Position numbers and translations under genes: made by a program
In this document: positions 15,946 through 64,000 of the stretch, piece by piece
Layout: each line of letters opens with the position of its first letter
Numbering within the stretch: position 1 is the stretch's first letter
Notes under the pieces: model-generated
Told to the model about the DNA's origin: nothing
Database searches by the model: none
The model's input: only the letters and a program-made list of their open reading frames with translations
Virus record (IMG/VR): IMGVR_UViG_3300009537_004349
Reading direction: 5' to 3' (one strand)
Length of the DNA stretch: 64,000 nt
Source of the DNA: a virus
Lineage: Duplodnaviria > Heunggongvirae > Uroviricota > Caudoviricetes

Positions 15946-16114
15946 CTATGTAATCCTGAACAGAATACCTATAGAACGCAGGGTTTGGCTTCACTATGCC
16001 AGAGCATATCCACTTAACTGATGGTGGAGAGAACCCGGTATCTTCTATAATCAGTCTGTTTACGTTTCTACCAGACAACAGAAAGTGATACAGTCCATAT
16101 ATAGCTCTATCCAT
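15923..16114 (-). CDS. hypothetical protein
   Basis: 63-aa ORF. Confidence 0.35.
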   Translation of the reverse strand: MDRAIYGLYHFLLSGRNVNRLIIEDTGFSPPSVKWICSGIVKPNPAFYRYSVQDYIDAKSKVV

Positions 16115-16650
16115 TACCGACTCTTATACTTATCTACTAAGTTCTTAGCCAGCCTAAATGAACTCTCATTTTTCTTATGAGCAGCCATATCATCACGAAC
16201 TTTTGTAACAACCTCACCCAGCCAATTCTTACCATCCCAAGTCTTACGACTTTGAGTTTTAGGGTCGCCTTCTGCCAAACCAATTCCCCAAATCTTATCA
16301 TAAGGACTGGCTTCAACCAAAGTGGTGCCTGCTGTTTTTACCAGAGCATCTTTATGATTACTATTCTGACTGAACTTACAATAGTTCCCCACATACACAA
16401 GTTCACGTGCCACCTTAGCCCAAGCAGGAATGTCAAAACCTTTAACCTGCCTGCCAAGTTTCTTTTGCACACCAGGATGGTCTTCCGACATAATCTTTTT
16501 GGCAGTGGAATAGTCCTCGAACAATACAGCCTTCATGAACATCATAAACTGCTCTGCTCTGTTAAACTTCATTCCCTCGAACTCAAACGGGCTGCTACTC
16601 CACTGAGAGAAGGGTCCGTTCCAAAAGAATGTAAACTGCTCAGCCATCAT
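16114..16650 (-). CDS. NADAR (YbiA-like, DUF1768) family protein
   Basis: FFWNGPFSQWS...EGMKFNRAEQFMMFMKA...KLGRQV...LVEASPYDKIWGIGL matches the YbiA/NADAR domain. Confidence 0.6.
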   Translation of the reverse strand: MMAEQFTFFWNGPFSQWSSSPFEFEGMKFNRAEQFMMFMKAVLFEDYSTAKKIMSEDHPGVQKKLGRQVKGFDIPAWAKVARELVYVGNYCKFSQNSNHKDALVKTAGTTLVEASPYDKIWGIGLAEGDPKTQSRKTWDGKNWLGEVVTKVRDDMAAHKKNESSFRLAKNLVDKYKSR

Positions 16651-46579: not shown

Positions 46580-46836
46580 GGTTTATTTCCTTTGCTTATC
46601 TGAAACCAGTGCTGCTCCATTTTCTTTAGAAACTCTTTGTCAAATGAAACCAGCTTATCTGGCAACACAGAATCTATACCACACTTAGGGCACAGAGCGG
46701 TTTGACCACCATCGCACCACTCATATATCTCAGTGGGGCTATAGATACGGCAGCAACAGAAGCAGCCACAGGTTTCACTCTCCATGACTGCTTCTAAATG
46801 ATAGCTGCTGTGTTCGTGTGCTTCAATGATATCCAT
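46576..46836 (-). CDS. hypothetical Cys-rich zinc-ribbon-like protein
   Basis: 86 aa; CGCFCCC...CDGG...CPKC. Confidence 0.45.
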   Translation of the reverse strand: MDIIEAHEHSSYHLEAVMESETCGCFCCCRIYSPTEIYEWCDGGQTALCPKCGIDSVLPDKLVSFDKEFLKKMEQHWFQISKGNKP

Positions 46837-47942
46837 TAGATGATGTCCACGTGATTGATGTCCAACCAGTCTTCCAGCGCCTTGATATTCATCTCGGCTA
46901 GATACTGCCGTACACTCTGCACCTTTCCATGCTTGAGGGAAAACAACGCCCCGGAGTACTTGGAGTCCTTGACTTTCATAGCGAACTGCTTCTTGTCATC
47001 GATATCCTTAACCATCTCATACATACCCTCGATGATACCGCGAGTATAGTCAAACTTTCCTCGCACTTCGGCATACAAAGATGCATACTCGGGATAATCC
47101 TCTAGATAAGAAGAAAACTCTTCGTTCTCATTATCCAGCATGACCTTGAGAATCTCTCTCGCAGGCACAGTGGACATCTTATCCTTGAAGCGAGATAGCG
47201 CTACATACTGCGGGGTCTTAACCTTCACACGATTATAGTTCCCATCGGCGACTACAAACCCTTCGCTCTCTAGAGGGTCCAGCTTCTTAGACGCCTCCAT
47301 AATGTCTTCCCAAGTCTCCAGCGAATGAATCTCCACGCACTCCCAGCCATTATGGTGGGCCACTACGATGGGGTTTACTTCGCTAAAGTCGGACAAATTA
47401 CGAGCGCCGTGTAGAACGATACGATTACGTGCATGCTTAACAACTACCCTGTTATAGGGAGTCATCAACTCAAACATATAGCACATGTTCTTGTTATCTG
47501 GCAAGTCATACTCTAGTTGCTCCCAAACCTTCCAAAACAGGTCGGCGAAAGACAATTCGGAGTTTAGAACATTACCAGCAGCATCAGGCATACCCGAGCT
47601 GGACACATGCCACTTGTTGTCGTAATGGTACAGCGTCATGAGAGAGCCATCTAGTTTCTCATAGACACGAGCGGAGCCCCAGTCTAAGTCCGCTGCGTTA
47701 GATTCTCCATAGTTGAAGAACTTATCGTAGGGATAAGATACAACGGCCCAATCATTTGCCTCATCTAAGATGATTCCTCGTGCCTGCTGTACGATTGGAG
47801 AGTTCATGGGCGAATCAATCTGATTGTACTTAAACAACACCAGATTATCATACACACCGTGGCGCTTTGCTGTTACGGCAAAGCGATTTTCCAACTCCTT
47901 GACTCCATGGTCACGGATGAAGTTCCTTAGTTGCTGGGCCAT
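46836..47942 (-). CDS. rnlA: RNA ligase, T4 Rnl1 family
   Basis: ARGIILDE...YPYDKFFNYGE and nucleotidyltransferase motif I VYEKLDGSLM (KxDG) aligned to T4 Rnl1 RGIMFEMDG...PMEKFFNLNE / TKEDGSLV. Confidence 0.7.
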   Translation of the reverse strand: MAQQLRNFIRDHGVKELENRFAVTAKRHGVYDNLVLFKYNQIDSPMNSPIVQQARGIILDEANDWAVVSYPYDKFFNYGESNAADLDWGSARVYEKLDGSLMTLYHYDNKWHVSSSGMPDAAGNVLNSELSFADLFWKVWEQLEYDLPDNKNMCYMFELMTPYNRVVVKHARNRIVLHGARNLSDFSEVNPIVVAHHNGWECVEIHSLETWEDIMEASKKLDPLESEGFVVADGNYNRVKVKTPQYVALSRFKDKMSTVPAREILKVMLDNENEEFSSYLEDYPEYASLYAEVRGKFDYTRGIIEGMYEMVKDIDDKKQFAMKVKDSKYSGALFSLKHGKVQSVRQYLAEMNIKALEDWLDINHVDII

Positions 47943-54802: not shown

Positions 54803-55498
54803 TTACTTGCGAGTTACCGCTCGTCTTGCTCGATTCTCCTCAGCAACTTCAGCCATGACTTCATCACTCGTAACTACTTGTACACCAGCGTCTTGCATTT
54901 CTTGTACAGCTTTGTCAGAGTCAGCAGGATCCAAATTAACCCCGCGACAGCCATCCAGAACAAGCCTTGTGTCAAACCCCAAAGCCACTGAATCAAGGGC
55001 TGTAAACTTGACGCAATAGTCCGTAGCAAGCCCCATAACATAAACAGTAGTAACGCCCCTGCCCCTGAGAAAATCTCCCAGGCCCGTCGAATACCTGACT
55101 TCTTCTCCATTGATAATAGCCTTGTTGTCAAAAAATGCCGAATAAGAATCAACAGAGACTCTCATTCCTTTGCGAAAGAGTGCTGTCAGATGCGTCACAT
55201 CAAGATTCGAATGAAGTTCGGAACCCTGAGTTCCCCAAACACAATGGTCTGGCCACATGACCTGCGGCACACCATTCAACTCTCCCAATGACATTACCTC
55301 TGCACCTTCGTTGTTAGATGCAAAGCTCCTGTGTGCAGGTGGATGATAGTCCTGAGTAGCTACGACAAGGGCCTCATCGCCTAAGAAACCCCACTGAAGT
55401 TTATTAGCGACAGCCATTACCTCATCGCCTGTATTAACTGCTAATGCCCCGCCAGGACAAAAATCATTCTGAAGGTCTACTAAGATTAACGCTTTCAT
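54803..55498 (-). CDS. pncA: nicotinamidase/pyrazinamidase (isochorismatase family)
   Basis: MKALILVDLQNDFCPGGALAV..., WPDHCV, DSYSAFFDN, MGLATDYCVKFTALD align along the length of E. coli PncA including the catalytic Cys. Confidence 0.85.
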   Translation of the reverse strand: MKALILVDLQNDFCPGGALAVNTGDEVMAVANKLQWGFLGDEALVVATQDYHPPAHRSFASNNEGAEVMSLGELNGVPQVMWPDHCVWGTQGSELHSNLDVTHLTALFRKGMRVSVDSYSAFFDNKAIINGEEVRYSTGLGDFLRGRGVTTVYVMGLATDYCVKFTALDSVALGFDTRLVLDGCRGVNLDPADSDKAVQEMQDAGVQVVTSDEVMAEVAEENRARRAVTRK

Positions 55499-56048
55499 TG
55501 TATTGCTCCTCTGTCAATTTAGACAGGTGTGTGAGCTTGATAGAATACTCTCCGCCTCCACCAATAACGTCGCGTTCACATCTTACCCTGCCATCTATAA
55601 TTCCTGTTACTTGAACATAATCTTCTTTGTGTATTTCAAGTAGCAGGTCTAATACCTGGTCGTCTGCTTCTGTAAGTATAGCCTGAATAACCGTAGTGTG
55701 TGTATCGTATGCTGTGTTCTCTACATAAAGATTTATGTAGAGTCTTTCCTCATCACTATGGTCAAAGACATATCGGACTTTACCTGCGAATGAAACGTGA
55801 GTTCCTTTTATTTTTCCCCACTTTTCATTCGCATACTTCACAGCCTGCATATGAGTTGTGTTCTTTGGTAGCCTCTCACAAACATTCCAGGGATAGGGTC
55901 CGTCAGAAGATTTACTAACTTCTTGTTCTACTCTATTCTTCCTAGAAAAATCTGATTCAGTGAGAACAACAGTAAACATGGTGGCAAACATACCCAGTAG
56001 AGCACCAAGCATCATACCTAGAACAAACCTATCTACTGTCATTTTCAC
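55464..56048 (-). CDS. hypothetical membrane-anchored protein
   Basis: 194 aa, N-terminal TM helix. Confidence 0.5.
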   Translation of the reverse strand: MKMTVDRFVLGMMLGALLGMFATMFTVVLTESDFSRKNRVEQEVSKSSDGPYPWNVCERLPKNTTHMQAVKYANEKWGKIKGTHVSFAGKVRYVFDHSDEERLYINLYVENTAYDTHTTVIQAILTEADDQVLDLLLEIHKEDYVQVTGIIDGRVRCERDVIGGGGEYSIKLTHLSKLTEEQYNESVNLSRPSE

Positions 56049-56430
56049 TAGCCTCCCGCTTCATCTCTGAGAGAAACTTTACAGCCTCGTCTTTATCCTT
56101 AATGCAAGCTGACACTCTGTCTGTACTACCATTCGTTCTCTCTTGAACAACATAATAGCAATCATCCCAAGCATCCATGTGAAATACGTTTGTCAATCTT
56201 GCGGGAGGTTCATCTGGAACCAATACATTATACGAAACGATACTGGACGCCAAAATAAAAGCCAGTCCTACAAGGGCGGACACCACCTGCGCGCCTTCGC
56301 TTTCGCAATAGCTCTCCCACATTCTGCTGACACCAAAAATAGGACGGGGTTTTTCTTTCAACTGCCTCTTAAGGTCAGCGTTTTCTTGTTCAAGCTTGTC
56401 AATCAGTTTGGTCAGTATCTCGTCGCTCAT
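56029..56430 (-). CDS. hypothetical membrane protein
   Basis: 133 aa, central TM helix. Confidence 0.45.
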   Translation of the reverse strand: MSDEILTKLIDKLEQENADLKRQLKEKPRPIFGVSRMWESYCESEGAQVVSALVGLAFILASSIVSYNVLVPDEPPARLTNVFHMDAWDDCYYVVQERTNGSTDRVSACIKDKDEAVKFLSEMKREASENDSR

Positions 56431-58333
56431 TGATATACTTCCACATGTCTTCCAGTTCTATTGTGAAGCCCCCGGAAAGAATCGGGAACCTACACCAGCT
56501 TTTTGGGTCAAGGTTCTTATCATCTACATGGAACGACGGAGCATATCGCTCTCTCTTCCATTGGTTTCTAGACCATAGTCTAAAGAACTTCTCAATCCAA
56601 ACGCCTAATTGATTATCGTCAAACTTGCCCCTTAATGTCTTAAACACTTCGAGAGGCGGCTTCTTATCTCTAATAGCCAGACCTTCAATCGTATCAAGCA
56701 AATCATACGGCATAAGGTCTGATTCATCGTGCTGATTATACTTCTCTGGTCTTAATTCTGCGGTGGGCTTTTGTTCGATAACCAAGTCGAGTGACTTCCA
56801 AACGAACTCATTTCGTACCCACACCAACCACTTAAGCAGAAAATCCTTATCAATCCCTGCCAGTGGACTTAAGCCACCACAAGTATCTCCATCCATAGTT
56901 GCGTACCCAACAGCTGCCTCAGAACGATTACTTGTAGCCAATAAGATAGCGTTATTCAAGTTTGCTACCATCCAAGCGCTTGGTGCTCGTGCTCGTGCTT
57001 GAATGTTCTGCATGGTGATATCATCAGTATCCCAGCTTAGCTCGCGACCGATAGCTCTCTCGACTCTAGCTGTATACATCTCCACCATTGCATCTACATC
57101 CAGCTCCATATAATCAGCGCCGAGTTCCTCAGCTACAGCTCTTGCTGCGTTCTGAGTTATGGTAGTACTATGTCGTGTGGGCTGGTAAATGCAAGTAAGG
57201 AACGCTCTTGTAGCAGTATACTTAAGCTTCCTTTCAAAGGCGTCTTTGTAATCCTTTCTTCCATAGTAGGGAATAAGTCTTACCAAACATGCTGCTGCTG
57301 TAGAATCTGCGCCCCCGCTAAGTGAGACAACAAATCCATTCGACCTTGTTTTGCGCATGTAATCAAACATACCCAAGCACATTGCGCGTGTGAACTCTTC
57401 GAACTCTGAAGCAAGCTCTGTGCTAATAGGTGCAGAAGGTTCCGCATCAGTTAACGGAGACTCAGCTCCCAGAATATCTTCAAAGTTATAGGCTCCTTGA
57501 AGATTTGGCTGATACGAACCCAGTCTCATTCTGTTCTGAGTATTGATGTCCAGGTCAACTACTGCTGTGGTTAGCTGCCCACTGTTATAGCTGAACCTAT
57601 CACCGTTTGCTACCACAACACCATTGTTGGCGATGATAGTATCACCATCATAAATGGTTCGTCCAGACTCATTGCCAAGCAGATTGCAGTAAACATAAGC
57701 TACATTAAGAGAGCGTGAACCCTCTTCCACAATCCGCAACCTGTTTTTGTGCTTGCCGAATGCAAAATGGCTTGCACTGGGATTAAGGATTACCTCAACA
57801 CCATCAGAGGCTAATTTAGCTCCCACTCTATTTGCTGCCCAAGCATCTTCACAAATCTCAAATCCAATCTTGACGCCGCCGAAATCGAATCTTAAGTCAC
57901 CAATCTGAGTATCCAACTCATTGTGATACTCGGTAACCCCGATAGGCCAAGGCTTGAACCAACGATGTTCATAATGCACACCATCATTAGCGAGATGCTT
58001 CTTGGGTACAAGACCAGCAATCTCCCCATTGGATAGCACTGCTACACAGTTGTACAGTGCTCCCTTGTGCAACACTGGCAGACCCACACACACAAACATA
58101 TCTGTAGCTGCTGATGCTACTGGCTCAAGATATGAATAAGCTCTCTTGATTAGTGATGGGGAATGGAATTGGTCCTCGCATCCATAGCCAGTAATGCAAA
58201 GCTCAGGCAAGCAAAGGATTCTTACATCCTCCTCTTTAGCCCTTTGAATAGCGTAATAAACATTGTTTAGATTGTTTTGCCAATCCAGAGGAGTTTGGTT
58301 TAGTGCTGCTGCCCCGAGCTTTACTCTTCGCAT
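56399..58333 (-). CDS. nadE: glutamine-dependent NAD+ synthetase (N-terminal nitrilase/CN-hydrolase domain + C-terminal PP-loop NAD synthase domain)
   Basis: LCLPELCITGY and FEICEDAW (CN-hydrolase E/K/C triad context); VVSLSGGADSTAAA PP-loop. Confidence 0.85.
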   Translation of the reverse strand: MRRVKLGAAALNQTPLDWQNNLNNVYYAIQRAKEEDVRILCLPELCITGYGCEDQFHSPSLIKRAYSYLEPVASAATDMFVCVGLPVLHKGALYNCVAVLSNGEIAGLVPKKHLANDGVHYEHRWFKPWPIGVTEYHNELDTQIGDLRFDFGGVKIGFEICEDAWAANRVGAKLASDGVEVILNPSASHFAFGKHKNRLRIVEEGSRSLNVAYVYCNLLGNESGRTIYDGDTIIANNGVVVANGDRFSYNSGQLTTAVVDLDINTQNRMRLGSYQPNLQGAYNFEDILGAESPLTDAEPSAPISTELASEFEEFTRAMCLGMFDYMRKTRSNGFVVSLSGGADSTAAACLVRLIPYYGRKDYKDAFERKLKYTATRAFLTCIYQPTRHSTTITQNAARAVAEELGADYMELDVDAMVEMYTARVERAIGRELSWDTDDITMQNIQARARAPSAWMVANLNNAILLATSNRSEAAVGYATMDGDTCGGLSPLAGIDKDFLLKWLVWVRNEFVWKSLDLVIEQKPTAELRPEKYNQHDESDLMPYDLLDTIEGLAIRDKKPPLEVFKTLRGKFDDNQLGVWIEKFFRLWSRNQWKRERYAPSFHVDDKNLDPKSWCRFPILSGGFTIELEDMWKYINERRDTDQTD

Positions 58334-58336
58334 GTC

Positions 58337-59497
58337 TTAATCCTTGATTTGAAATACCTTTTTCAGGTACTTGACGTATTCTTCATCGCGACACATTCCC
58401 TTGCCAGCGCTGTCAGAAATCTTAGCGACCGGTCTACCATTACATTCTACAATTTTCATCACGATTTGTAAAGGGGTAATGCCATCGAAGTCATTTGTCA
58501 GGTTTGTACCAATGCCGAAGCTGACGTTGATATCTTTATTAAGCCCATCATACAAGGCTTTAGCTTTCTCAAGGCTTAGACCATCGCTGAATACCAGGGT
58601 CTTGGTCTTAGGGTCAATGCCCAGCTTTTTGTAGTGTTCAATGGCTGCCGCTGCCCACCAAAAAGGGTCGCCGCTATCGTGCCTAAGTCCGTCATAGAGC
58701 TTAGCAAAATACAGGTCGAAGTCCCTAAGGAATGCGTCAAACCCAACCACATCGGTCAGTGCGATACCCAGGTCTCCTCGGTACTCATCCACCCACGCTT
58801 GCAACATTCGCTTCTGTGAATCAATCAGCGGAACATCTAAAGCCTGTCCCACCTGAAGGAACTCGTGAGCCATAGTCCCAATAGGAGTTAGTCCATAATT
58901 TTTGGCAAAGAATACATTTGAGGTACCCCTAAATTGCTCTATTAGGTCAGAGCAACTTAATCTGTCTATTACCTCATCATGCCAATCGTGACTAAATCTT
59001 CTTCTAGTGCCAAAATCTACGAATGAAAATCTTGATGCTTTGGCAACTTCAATCTTATCTATTAGCTTTTTTAATCCATTCTCTAATAGCTCATCTGTGG
59101 CATAGTCTGAAAAGTATACCTCATTCGCAATAGCGAGTACAGGGACCTCCCAATAAACTGTGAGGAACCACGGACCTTTGACAGTGATGCTAAGCTCACC
59201 GTCTTTGTGTTCCACATTCAAGTGAGATAAGTCAGGGCGATAAAGTTTCAGGAAATCGATGTAGCTGTCCTTAAAGAACCTAATGTTCCTCAAGTAATCC
59301 AGCTCATCTTCAGTGAATTTTAGAAGGGAAAAATGTTCCAGCTCATGTCTAATACGTCCAACCTTTGCAGGCGTCCACTCAGCATCATTGCGACACTTGA
59401 ATTCGTACTCGACATTTACCCAGGGGAATTGATGTAGGGCGACTTGGCCCATCGTGAACTTGTACAGGTCTGTATCAAGTAGGCTTGTTACTATCAT
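58337..59497 (-). CDS. pncB: nicotinate phosphoribosyltransferase
   Basis: SLLDTDLYKFTMGQVALHQFP...EYEFKCRN parallels E. coli PncB [20 protein letters not shown]...EFRCRG; 386 aa. Confidence 0.85.
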   Translation of the reverse strand: MIVTSLLDTDLYKFTMGQVALHQFPWVNVEYEFKCRNDAEWTPAKVGRIRHELEHFSLLKFTEDELDYLRNIRFFKDSYIDFLKLYRPDLSHLNVEHKDGELSITVKGPWFLTVYWEVPVLAIANEVYFSDYATDELLENGLKKLIDKIEVAKASRFSFVDFGTRRRFSHDWHDEVIDRLSCSDLIEQFRGTSNVFFAKNYGLTPIGTMAHEFLQVGQALDVPLIDSQKRMLQAWVDEYRGDLGIALTDVVGFDAFLRDFDLYFAKLYDGLRHDSGDPFWWAAAAIEHYKKLGIDPKTKTLVFSDGLSLEKAKALYDGLNKDINVSFGIGTNLTNDFDGITPLQIVMKIVECNGRPVAKISDSAGKGMCRDEEYVKYLKKVFQIKD

Positions 59498-60659: not shown

Positions 60660-60737
60660 TGGAGCCCGTACTCGGATTCGAACCGAGGACCCTCTGCTTG
60701 GAAGGCAGACGCTCTAATACCGCTGAGCTACACGGGC
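60660..60737 (-). tRNA. tRNA-Gly (anticodon UCC)
   Basis: GCCCGTG acceptor, TAGCTCAGCGG D-arm, anticodon arm TCTGC-CTTCCAA-GCAGA, GGTTCGAATCC, CCA. Confidence 0.7.
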
Positions 60738-61201
60738 TTGATTTTTTGAATAGCTCTAAACATCGAGCTAGAAATGTGCGAAAGGTTTCTATCACAGATG
60801 AAATATACAATAGGAATCTCCAGACCCAAATCCTCATTCCAATATTGCTGGTTCATCTCATACTGTAGGTCGTGTCCGTTTCGTAGACCTCGAATCACAG
60901 CATTCAAATTGTGCTTCTTAACTTCATCTACCAGGAACCCAGCAAAGGATACCACTTTAACTCGATAGTTTTCATAGTTGCCTACTTCATCACCAAGTTC
61001 TTCGTTAATAGCATCAGCTAACTGGTTGTCGCTTAGCTTAAAGCTCTCGATGTCTTTCTCAGGATTGTAACCACGAGCTACAATAATCTCATCGAATACT
61101 TTGAGAGCCTTGTTAAGAATATCAGCATGACCCTTGTGCCAAGGATTAAATGAGCCAGGATAGATTGCTCTACTCACTGTCTGATACCACATCTTCTTCA
61201 T
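60728..61201 (-). CDS. cytidylyltransferase-fold adenylyltransferase, closest to phosphopantetheine adenylyltransferase (CoaD/PPAT); candidate NaMN/NMN adenylyltransferase
   Basis: RAIYPGSFNPWHKGHADIL vs CoaD RAIYPGTFDPITNGHIDIV; AVIRGLRNGHDLQYEM...SHISSSMFRAI vs VLIRGLRAVADFEYEM...SFISSSLVKEV; 157 aa. Confidence 0.65.
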   Translation of the reverse strand: MKKMWYQTVSRAIYPGSFNPWHKGHADILNKALKVFDEIIVARGYNPEKDIESFKLSDNQLADAINEELGDEVGNYENYRVKVVSFAGFLVDEVKKHNLNAVIRGLRNGHDLQYEMNQQYWNEDLGLEIPIVYFICDRNLSHISSSMFRAIQKIKPV

Positions 61202-62964: not shown

Positions 62965-63521
62965 CCCTGCATATGGTTCTTCATGGTATCAAAAATCTCG
63001 TTCCAGCATTCCTGCTTTTCTTTTTCTCGTTTCTCAAGCAGGATACGATATTCTTTTTCTTCCTGCTCTCTATCATCGTCAGTGATAACATTCTTTCTGT
63101 TGAAAATCATCTGTAGCAACTGAGGATTACTGGTTGGCTTAGAACCAATCTCTAATTCGCCCCACTTATCATCGTGAGCTTTCATCTCAGCCGTACAGAA
63201 ATCGTCGTCCATGTATCTGTCGATGAGCTTTTCTACGTGGAGAATTTCGTTGACAATTACTGGAGCAGCTACTACGAGATTGTTTTCTTTAATCCTTATT
63301 CTGGTTCTCTTTAGTTTATACTGTAAGAGATATAGGATATAGGAATAATCCCAATCAAAGTCTGACCAAAGAAGCCTGGAATACTGAATGGACTTTACTA
63401 TCCAATCCCATGTGCGCGTAAATGGATGCGTAAGCTTGCCCCATAGACTGGACACATTCCAGGCAAAACTCATTTCAGAGTCATACCAATCCAGCAAGTT
63501 ACGTTTAATCCATTTTAGCAT
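62952..63521 (-). CDS. hypothetical protein
   Basis: 189-aa ORF. Confidence 0.5.
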   Translation of the reverse strand: MLKWIKRNLLDWYDSEMSFAWNVSSLWGKLTHPFTRTWDWIVKSIQYSRLLWSDFDWDYSYILYLLQYKLKRTRIRIKENNLVVAAPVIVNEILHVEKLIDRYMDDDFCTAEMKAHDDKWGELEIGSKPTSNPQLLQMIFNRKNVITDDDREQEEKEYRILLEKREKEKQECWNEIFDTMKNHMQGWWD

Positions 63522-64000
63522 GTCAGAAATTTATCCATCACCAATACGTAGATTATGAAATAGTGGGTCAAATGGTGTACTGTTTGGTCTAAACCTAACG
63601 ACCACCAGAATAACACATTACCCTTTAGCTTCTCTCTCGCTGCCTTTACAGCTTCAGCATCATCTGCATTCGTATATGTATCATAGGCTTTCTTAAACCC
63701 ATTAGCTGTGAGTGGCTTATACCTACCCAAGTACTTAGGTCCAGCCTTAATACGGTCCATAAAGAAATGTACCGTCATGTCTACTAAAGCAAGCCACCAG
63801 TAAGTTGGGTTTACCCACAGACATAGTGCCAATGTCATAGCGCCATGTACACCGACATGTGCAAGCAGGGGTAAAAAGAAATCCCATCCTGGCTTGAACT
63901 TGCCAAGCATATAGGTTCCTTGCAGCGGGTAGTCAGCAAAGAAATGCTTAGCTTGAAAGAATAGCAGAAGCCCAAATGTGAATGTAATAAACTCAAACAT
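63515..64000 (-). CDS. hypothetical polytopic membrane protein
   Basis: 161 aa with at least four hydrophobic helices; start codon at the window edge. Confidence 0.45.
   Translation of the reverse strand: MFEFITFTFGLLLFFQAKHFFADYPLQGTYMLGKFKPGWDFFLPLLAHVGVHGAMTLALCLWVNPTYWWLALVDMTVHFFMDRIKAGPKYLGRYKPLTANGFKKAYDTYTNADDAEAVKAAREKLKGNVLFWWSLGLDQTVHHLTHYFIIYVLVMDKFLTC

Follow-up and report, generated by a model that had tools for sequence, protein, structure and literature searches.

A PPAT-like adenylyltransferase predicted beside a nicotinate-route NAD salvage module in a very large phage

We describe a 157-aa protein encoded by a caudoviricete phage (IMG/VR record IMGVR_UViG_3300009537_004349) that, by sequence and by predicted fold, belongs to the phosphopantetheine adenylyltransferase (PPAT, or CoaD) family and not to the nicotinate mononucleotide (NaMN) adenylyltransferases (NadD). 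Its gene lies 1.2 kb from phage genes for PncB, NadE and PncA. Here, the window is the whole 64-kb stretch of DNA that was analysed, which makes up 22% of a contig of 291,701 bp, and statements that something is the only one of its kind apply to this window. The original prediction had set out two readings of the gene: a PPAT-fold enzyme re-tasked to pyridine mononucleotides, or an enzyme making dephospho-CoA in a phage that relies on host NadD. These were the right alternatives, but of the two, re-tasking to NaMN is the less favoured by the evidence, as relatives of the gene coexist with NadD, other phages do without NadD, and CoaE is linked to the gene in some lineages. Set against a replacement of NadD, the PPAT-like reading is favoured by the comparative evidence, which also adds a third possibility in which another acceptor is used. 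We tentatively propose that the protein could well be a genuine PPAT that converts 4'-phosphopantetheine to dephospho-CoA; the identity of this acceptor is inferred.

Sequence and predicted fold

Pfam PF01467 matched the protein with an E-value of 6.4e-13, and the NCBIfam coaD equivalog TIGR01510 aligned to residues 11-154 with 113.8 bits (E 7e-33), a small margin over its cutoff of 103.3. Matches were also found to 34 distinct PPAT sequences in the PDB (E 3.5e-20 to 2.6e-11), and all significant PDB matches were PPATs; the sole non-PPAT match was an archaeal nicotinamide mononucleotide adenylyltransferase (NMNAT), at E 0.004 and in the N-terminal motif. The AlphaFold2 (AF2) model had a pLDDT of 85.4 and a pTM of 0.76, and when it was compared with the PDB using Foldseek the top 50 matches were all PPATs, with template modelling (TM) scores of 0.68-0.73 and E-values of ~1e-9. 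The protein has the fold and the length class of PPAT/CoaD (TIGR01510; PDB 1VLH, 1B6T, 1QJC), and shares with it the catalytic, ATP and 4'-phosphate contacts (H18, K42, R88, R91 and S128-130 in E. coli numbering), the GLLVD segment and the RGLR...D..YE block. PHROGs places it in phrog_29208, of unknown function, and JGI calls its homologues pantetheine-phosphate adenylyltransferase.

Similarity to NadD (TIGR00482; PDB 1K4K, 3HFJ) was that of a member of the same nucleotidyltransferase superfamily, with the GxFxPxHxGH and ISSxxxR motifs in common, and just the first ~35 residues of the phage protein aligned. TIGR00482 reached 20.5 bits against a cutoff of 112.45, other NadD models reached 16-21 bits against cutoffs of 210-315, and the NadD and NMNAT models matched residues ~11-55 only. 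BLASTP against E. coli NadD aligned 15 residues (E 0.003) at the N-terminal HIGH motif. The SYTxDT and GxD...W elements, which are substrate motifs of NadD, were absent from the phage sequence and were seen in the NadD of one related phage (lineage L165, below). The original prediction that the protein aligns with PPAT along its length, and much less well with NadD, was therefore upheld on both counts.

Active-site residues and proposed activity

PPAT contact residues known from mutagenesis and structures of the H. pylori and E. coli enzymes (PMC12784347), and acceptor contacts seen in the phosphopantetheine-bound M. abscessus enzyme (PMC9197168), were mapped onto 121 homologues of the phage protein. 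E. coli numbering is used for these contacts, K42 corresponding to K49 of the phage protein in the HMMER alignment. The contacts to ATP, the transition state and the phosphate were all retained (P8, T10(S), H18, K42, R88, R91, D95, Y98, E99 and S128-130), and phage residues H25, K49, R104, R107 and S144-146, which correspond to PPAT residues validated by mutagenesis, were invariant or nearly so in the 121 homologues. Because all of these contacts are retained, the protein is almost certainly, as judged from its sequence, an active adenylyltransferase that uses a phosphorylated acceptor. Contacts to the pantetheine arm were retained at residue 74 (Leu) and, in the clade of the phage protein, at Asn106, as was the GLLVD segment, whose backbone touches the pantetheine amide.

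In the mechanism that we propose, the HxGH and ISSS motifs, together with Arg107, would bind ATP; Ser17, Lys49 and Arg104 would place the acceptor phosphate; and AMP would be transferred to this phosphate, releasing pyrophosphate. The full conservation of residues validated by mutagenesis suggests each of these steps. By making dephospho-CoA, the phage would boost the penultimate, regulated step in the synthesis of CoA. As 4'-phosphopantetheine builds up in E. coli (PMC9197168), a stand-alone PPAT would be metabolically sensible. The gene would sit within an island of genes for cofactors and accessory functions, and the conversion of NaMN to nicotinate adenine dinucleotide (NaAD) for the PncA-PncB-NadE module would be carried out by host NadD, or by a NadD encoded in the other 78% of the genome. 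We favour this reading because the sequence and fold evidence all points to PPAT, because the phosphate-binding residues and GLLVD are retained, because CoaE is operonic with the gene in two lineages (L005 and L055), and because the gene is no alternative to NadD, the two being found side by side.

The ORF and its overlap with a tRNA gene

The ORF begins with an ATG at position 61201, with an AGGGAG Shine-Dalgarno sequence 7 nt 5' of it, and the protein includes the peptides RAIYPGSFNPWHKGH, IRGLRNGHDLQYEM and ISSSMFRAI. The 157-aa ORF of the original prediction, with the peptides quoted there, is thus present, on the minus strand. In the JGI gene call the identical protein has 149 aa, and its start would be an internal GTG. 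At the other end of the ORF, the final three codons and the TAG stop fall within the 5' end of the tRNA-Gly(UCC) gene (Table 1). Processing of the 5' end of this tRNA would sever the mRNA right before the stop codon.

The overlap with a tRNA gene and the lack of the PPAT C-terminal helix could be taken to indicate an inactive remnant or a mis-called ORF. We consider this highly improbable, since the catalytic residues are invariant in 121 homologues of 50-85% identity, the AF2 model has a pLDDT of 85, the ribosome-binding site is good, and the short C-terminus is common to the clade.

A phage-restricted family with HD-domain fusions

The family comprises proteins of 135-155 aa with 50-85% identity, many of them encoded on contigs of 100-300 kb. 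An exhaustive profile search returned 146 clusters (at 50% identity) with E <= 1e-30, and canonical CoaDs filled the 6,205 matches at E <= 1e-10. The family was confined to phage-like contigs, and in a neighbour-joining tree the phage sequences formed one group on a long branch, apart from enterobacterial CoaD. Members associated with NadE, CoaE, NADAR, HD or DUF3307 were intermixed in this tree; as these contexts showed no partition, subclade-specific specificities were rejected. Genomic context was analysed at 80 loci from IMG/VR, which dereplicate to 61 lineages, at 80 loci from metagenomes (67 lineages) and on several Logan/ENA contigs. The clade to which the phage protein itself belongs, with FNPWH and YWNED signatures, comprises 65 lineages.

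About one third of the listed family matches were fusions of 320-385 aa with an HD-superfamily domain. This domain was N-terminal in at least 11 lineages (L030, L037, L047, L049, L055, L056, L065, L074, L078, L083 and L086) and C-terminal in L087, which is LR756500 (35588-36001 region), and carried the motifs EPHRxYHxxxH ... FHDxxYDP ... NEExS. A profile of the domain gave weak matches, and only to uncharacterised HD hydrolases (Lin1889, BH2835); none of the NCBIfam HD models matched it, and neither did any PDB entry in single-sequence searches. The idea that it is an AcpH-like acyl carrier protein phosphodiesterase supplying phosphopantetheine was rejected (hhalign probability 0.05%). In NadD-HD fusions and the NadD-YqeK operon (NF005519/PRK07152), an HD hydrolase is tied to a NaMN adenylyltransferase. 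The likeness to the wider phage family is that a HIGH-type adenylyltransferase is joined to an HD-superfamily phosphohydrolase; however, the phage fusions have a different HD family and a PPAT-like adenylyltransferase half, and the protein studied here is itself unfused.

Two other phage loci were discounted. Caulobacter phage BL47 has NAMPT beside a PPAT, but this PPAT is of the canonical type (TxGH, KE, C-terminal helix) and of another clade, and so does not serve as evidence for a role in NAD synthesis. The 'coaD' of Microcystis phage MaAM05 sits among rplA, rplK, nusG and secE. This region (L090; MW495066.1, 28436-44855) also holds ilvD and a type 3 secretin, and looks like bacterial DNA inside a phage record because of the rplA, rplK, nusG and secE genes that surround coaD.

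Co-occurrence with NadD and CoaE in related phages

If the gene replaced NadD, a distribution complementary to that of canonical NadD might be expected, and this was not found in the sampled loci, because in several cases a PPAT-like gene is paired with an NAD adenylyltransferase. The L165 locus holds a clade-mate that has the complete signature and, three small genes away, a bona fide NadD (TIGR00482, 137 bits against a cutoff of 112; SYTIDT) together with an NH3-type NadE (272 vs 255 bits). PncB, NadD and the PPAT-like gene are carried together by LR756501/3, and on the 243-kb contig P0098 an NMNAT-Nudix gene lies 4 kb from a clade-mate. No NAD gene was within view in 62 of the 65 clade lineages.

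The same conclusion is reached from the NAD genes. Among ~22 phage lineages anchored on NadE or PncB, ~7 had the PPAT-like gene only, 1-2 had NadD only (L093/L106), 1 had both and 12 had neither. Atu_ph07, Phosso and LR756511 have PncB, with or without NadE, and neither NadD nor the PPAT-like gene. Phage PncB/NadE sets that lack both enzymes are thus common, and the missing NadD therefore needs no filling.

Two lineages link the gene to the next enzyme, CoaE. In L055 a CoaE gene (PF01121, E 4e-23) overlaps the end of an HD-PPAT-like fusion, and in L005 CoaE sits between the PPAT-like gene, a 55%-identical clade-mate, and DUF3307.

DUF3307 and RNA-related neighbours

The dominant neighbour in the clade was DUF3307, found within 300 bp in 17 of the 65 lineages. 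In 25 of the 29 pairs that it forms with the PPAT-like gene it was encoded upstream and in the same orientation, 12 of them having a 4-nt overlap; because of these overlaps, the arrangement in relatives is typical of translational coupling. DUF3307 is a small four-helix membrane protein with invariant His, Asp and Gln in its membrane helices, and was seen in L012, L020, L005 and ~30 other loci. In the literature on DUF3307 and on phage PPAT we found nothing functional. The second most frequent neighbour of the clade was RtcB, and tRNAs and an RNA ligase were nearby.

Evidence against PPAT function and alternative acceptors

Several observations weigh against the protein being a plain PPAT. Contacts to the pantetheine arm are partly altered, and almost invariantly so across the clade: L102 is replaced by Gln in 112 of the 121 homologues, A103 by Gln, M105 by Trp, L131 by Ala or Met, and E134 by Ala, Met, Ser or Gln (E134A in the phage protein). 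Further changes in the clade are D12 to Asn, I14 to Trp, which with M105W gives new Trp residues at 14 and 105, and T15 to His, which gives HxGH, as in NadD and NMNAT, where PPAT has TxGH. The C-terminal helix of PPAT (~residues 138-159) is missing, clade proteins ending ~11 residues past ISSS, and there is a 20-residue insertion after the NPxK motif. The acceptor pocket, as mapped from the alignment, is different from that of a textbook PPAT. The structure prediction advised in the original prediction gave the fold of PPAT, and the alignment showed pantetheine-arm contacts that are in part kept and in part altered. Moreover, the structural match to PPAT was just TM ~0.70, relatives in the wider phage family scored 82-114 bits with TIGR01510, a range that spans the CoaD cutoff, and CoaE was found in 2 of ~128 lineages, not above the 1 of 80 in control loci. 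A membrane partner such as DUF3307 is unexpected for an ordinary enzyme of the CoA pathway, and neither DUF3307 pairing nor HD fusion is known for CoaD. Since neither CoA nor NAD synthesis explains a coupled membrane partner or HD fusions, we considered that the enzyme may use another acceptor and act with DUF3307. The pair could import a cofactor precursor in phosphorylated form and activate it, in the manner of the transporter and adenylyltransferase PnuC and NadR (NARP3), whose logic it resembles; or the enzyme could make a nucleotide-activated donor, which DUF3307 would transfer to an envelope component. A further possibility, by analogy with E. coli PPAT, which was reported to cap RNA 5' ends with phosphopantetheine (PMC10761072), is capping of triphosphate RNA, in keeping with the RtcB, RNA ligase and tRNA surroundings. 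The frequency and coupling of DUF3307, its presence 2.3 kb upstream in the window, the invariant His, Asp and Gln in its membrane helices, the remodelled pocket, the long branch off CoaD and the fusion of an HD-type phosphohydrolase domain in both orders all agree with such a role. However, we found no positive evidence for any alternative substrate, the literature assigned no function to DUF3307, the HD domain resembles only uncharacterised hydrolases and is not AcpH-like, conservation of gene order in jumbo phages could account for part of the DUF3307 pairing, and the phosphate-binding residues and GLLVD are those of PPAT. We regard another acceptor as a possibility on the unlikely side.

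NAD genes near relatives also weigh against a PPAT role and would suit a PPAT-derived enzyme that adenylylates NaMN or nicotinamide mononucleotide (NMN) in place of NadD. This enzyme would complete a phage Preiss-Handler route, from nicotinamide to nicotinate (PncA), NaMN (PncB), NaAD (the enzyme studied here) and NAD (NadE), and the route would rebuild NAD drained by host defences. NadE, PncB or NadD lay within 10 kb of the gene in 7 of ~128 family lineages, in addition to the window and LR756500, whose PPAT-like-HD fusion is 9 kb from PncB. As a control we used 80 RtcB-anchored viral loci (1.35 Mb), a rough baseline from a different phage population, and these had no NadE, PncB, PncA or NadD. 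NAD genes are therefore enriched near the family, and clustering of accessory genes was rejected as the full cause of their proximity because the control loci had none. In the clade of L026, L028 and L039, a glutamine-type NadE (45% identical to that of the window) lies 1-4 genes upstream of the PPAT-like gene, which occupies the place downstream of NadE where L093 and L106 hold a canonical NadD (verified by PDB match). Homing endonuclease genes (HNH, LAGLIDADG) lie between NadE and the PPAT-like gene in L026 (10713-11246) and L028 (9150-9968). In L069 the end of an NH3-type NadE gene lies 1 bp ahead of the PPAT-like gene. In L121 a compact module holds the PPAT-like gene (59% identical), three small ORFs, PncB (66%), an NH3-type NadE and PncA (61%), so that linkage was kept though NadE was swapped for the NH3 type. 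The gene studied here likewise adjoins a NadE/PncB region, as NadD does in L093/L106 and L165, and encodes the sole nucleotidyltransferase of the window. A nucleotide acceptor would be in keeping with HxGH, the new Trp residues and the polar nature of the pocket, and an enzyme of this kind, being part of no published phage NAD pathway, would have escaped recognition. Against this, NadD models fail widely and the NadD motifs are absent; clade-mates coexist with NadD or NMNAT-Nudix, most have no NAD genes nearby, phage PncB/NadE sets without an adenylyltransferase are common, and L005 and L055 show tight linkage to CoaE. Replacement of NadD by this gene is therefore unlikely in our assessment. 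It is equally doubtful that the family as a whole consists of PPAT-derived NaMN/NMN adenylyltransferases, forming a fourth kind of NARP in this phage and an uptake-and-adenylylation pair with DUF3307 elsewhere.

Relation to known phage NAD pathways

Published phage systems for rebuilding NAD are NARP1 (Adps and Namat), NARP2 (Nampt and a NadM-type Nmnat(-Nudix)) and NARP3 (PnuC and NadR), and a survey of viral NAD systems listed NadV, NadM and NadR as the only synthesis enzymes. Neither a nicotinate-route module (PncA-PncB-NadE) nor a PPAT-derived enzyme is described in the literature on NARP1-3 or in this survey. The window, like NARP2 and NARP3, has a phage NAD salvage module, known here from its genes, that could serve the same purpose. 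It differs in its nicotinate (Preiss-Handler) route and in an adenylyltransferase that would be derived from PPAT and not from NadM or NadR.

The NAD module and other features of the window

The phage has 27 tRNA genes in the window, all on the minus strand, as are 136 of the 144 ORFs. No close DNA relative was found for the window among deposited phages; the best protein matches of its ORFs were in uncultured megaphages of 630-640 kb, and the window derives from a very large phage.

Table 1. Positions of the features of the window discussed in the text
Feature	Position	Strand	Evidence and remarks
PPAT-like (CoaD-family) adenylyltransferase, phage type, 157 aa	60728..61201	-	ORF call, TIGR01510, PDB/Foldseek matches
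tRNA-Gly(UCC)	60660..60737	-	ARAGORN; 5' end shares 10 nt (60728-60737) with the 3' end of the PPAT-like ORF
DUF3307 membrane protein	63515..64000	-	PF11750, 24 bits vs cutoff 23; last ORF of the window, 2.3 kb upstream of the PPAT-like gene
PncB, nicotinate phosphoribosyltransferase	58337..59497	-	PF04095, E 3e-77; NF003704, 537 bits vs cutoff 379
NadE, glutamine-dependent NAD synthetase (CN_hydrolase + NAD_synthase)	56399..58333	-	PF02540, E 8.5e-33; PF00795, E 2.8e-22
Two ORFs between PncA and NadE (194 aa, 133 aa), predicted membrane-anchored	55464..56048, 56029..56430	-	No family matches, no HxGH
PncA, nicotinamidase	54803..55498	-	NF008623, 266 bits vs cutoff 174
Distant NAD-kinase relative, 305 aa	52283-53200	-	Best NCBIfam match 36 bits, far under cutoffs; GGD and GSTG-like motifs
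Accessory region (RNA-repair genes and others)	46836-47942 and elsewhere	-	
tRNA with CUA anticodon	45231-45308	-	ARAGORN label Pyl
CoaB-like (partial DFP C-terminal domain) with a faint class II aldolase-like region	38481..39674	-	PF04127, E 1.6e-9, part of profile; phrog_35624, unknown function
NADAR-domain protein	16114-16650	-	

Downstream of the PPAT-like gene the order is tRNA-Gly, an 87-aa ORF, tRNA-Ser, a coiled-coil ORF, PncB, NadE, the two membrane-anchored ORFs and PncA. PncA, PncB and NadE meet curated cutoffs and make up the Preiss-Handler NAD salvage set (54803-59497). As originally predicted, the PPAT-like gene is the only candidate of the module for the step from NaMN to NaAD, with no other PF01467 protein among the 144 ORFs; this applies to the window and not to the genome, since the window is 64 kb of a much longer contig. 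A NadD hidden in one of the two ORFs between PncA and NadE was rejected, given the features of these ORFs listed in Table 1. The distant NAD-kinase relative may, from its sequence, extend the module to NADP.

The CoaB-like protein had been put forward as making a CoA-pathway reading conceivable. It lends little to this reading: CoaB equivalogs gave it 35-38 bits against cutoffs of 217-265, the domain match is partial, and there was one PDB match, at E 0.004. L048 and L057 have homologues of it ~7 kb from their PPAT-like genes. In ~8 lineages of the wider family (L022, L023, L047, L048, L053, L054, L058 and L074), a homologue of the NADAR-domain protein is found within a few kb of the PPAT-like gene.

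The accessory region holds two kinds of RNA-repair gene, one for a T4-type RNA ligase 1 and one with the HAD domain found in 'Swiss Army Knife' RNA repair proteins. It also encodes an NT5C nucleotidase, a calcineurin-like phosphoesterase and a 5-formyltetrahydrofolate cyclo-ligase. The tRNA with a CUA anticodon is a candidate amber suppressor. Recoding of TAG was rejected, and the window shows no sign of it, because TAG ends 27 of the 144 ORFs and, read with the standard code, the window has a coding density of 92%.

Significance

Rebuilding of NAD by phages is a recently recognised form of counter-defence (NARP1-3). The family of ~146 clusters described here is at present either unannotated (phrog_29208) or automatically named CoaD, and textbook CoA synthesis accounts for neither its conserved coupling to DUF3307 nor its HD fusions. 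If the enzyme were a true NaMN adenylyltransferase, it would represent a clean substrate switch within the nucleotidyltransferase superfamily and would make a new NAD pathway in phages complete. Should it instead be a true PPAT, it would show that large phages boost CoA synthesis as well, at its regulated step.

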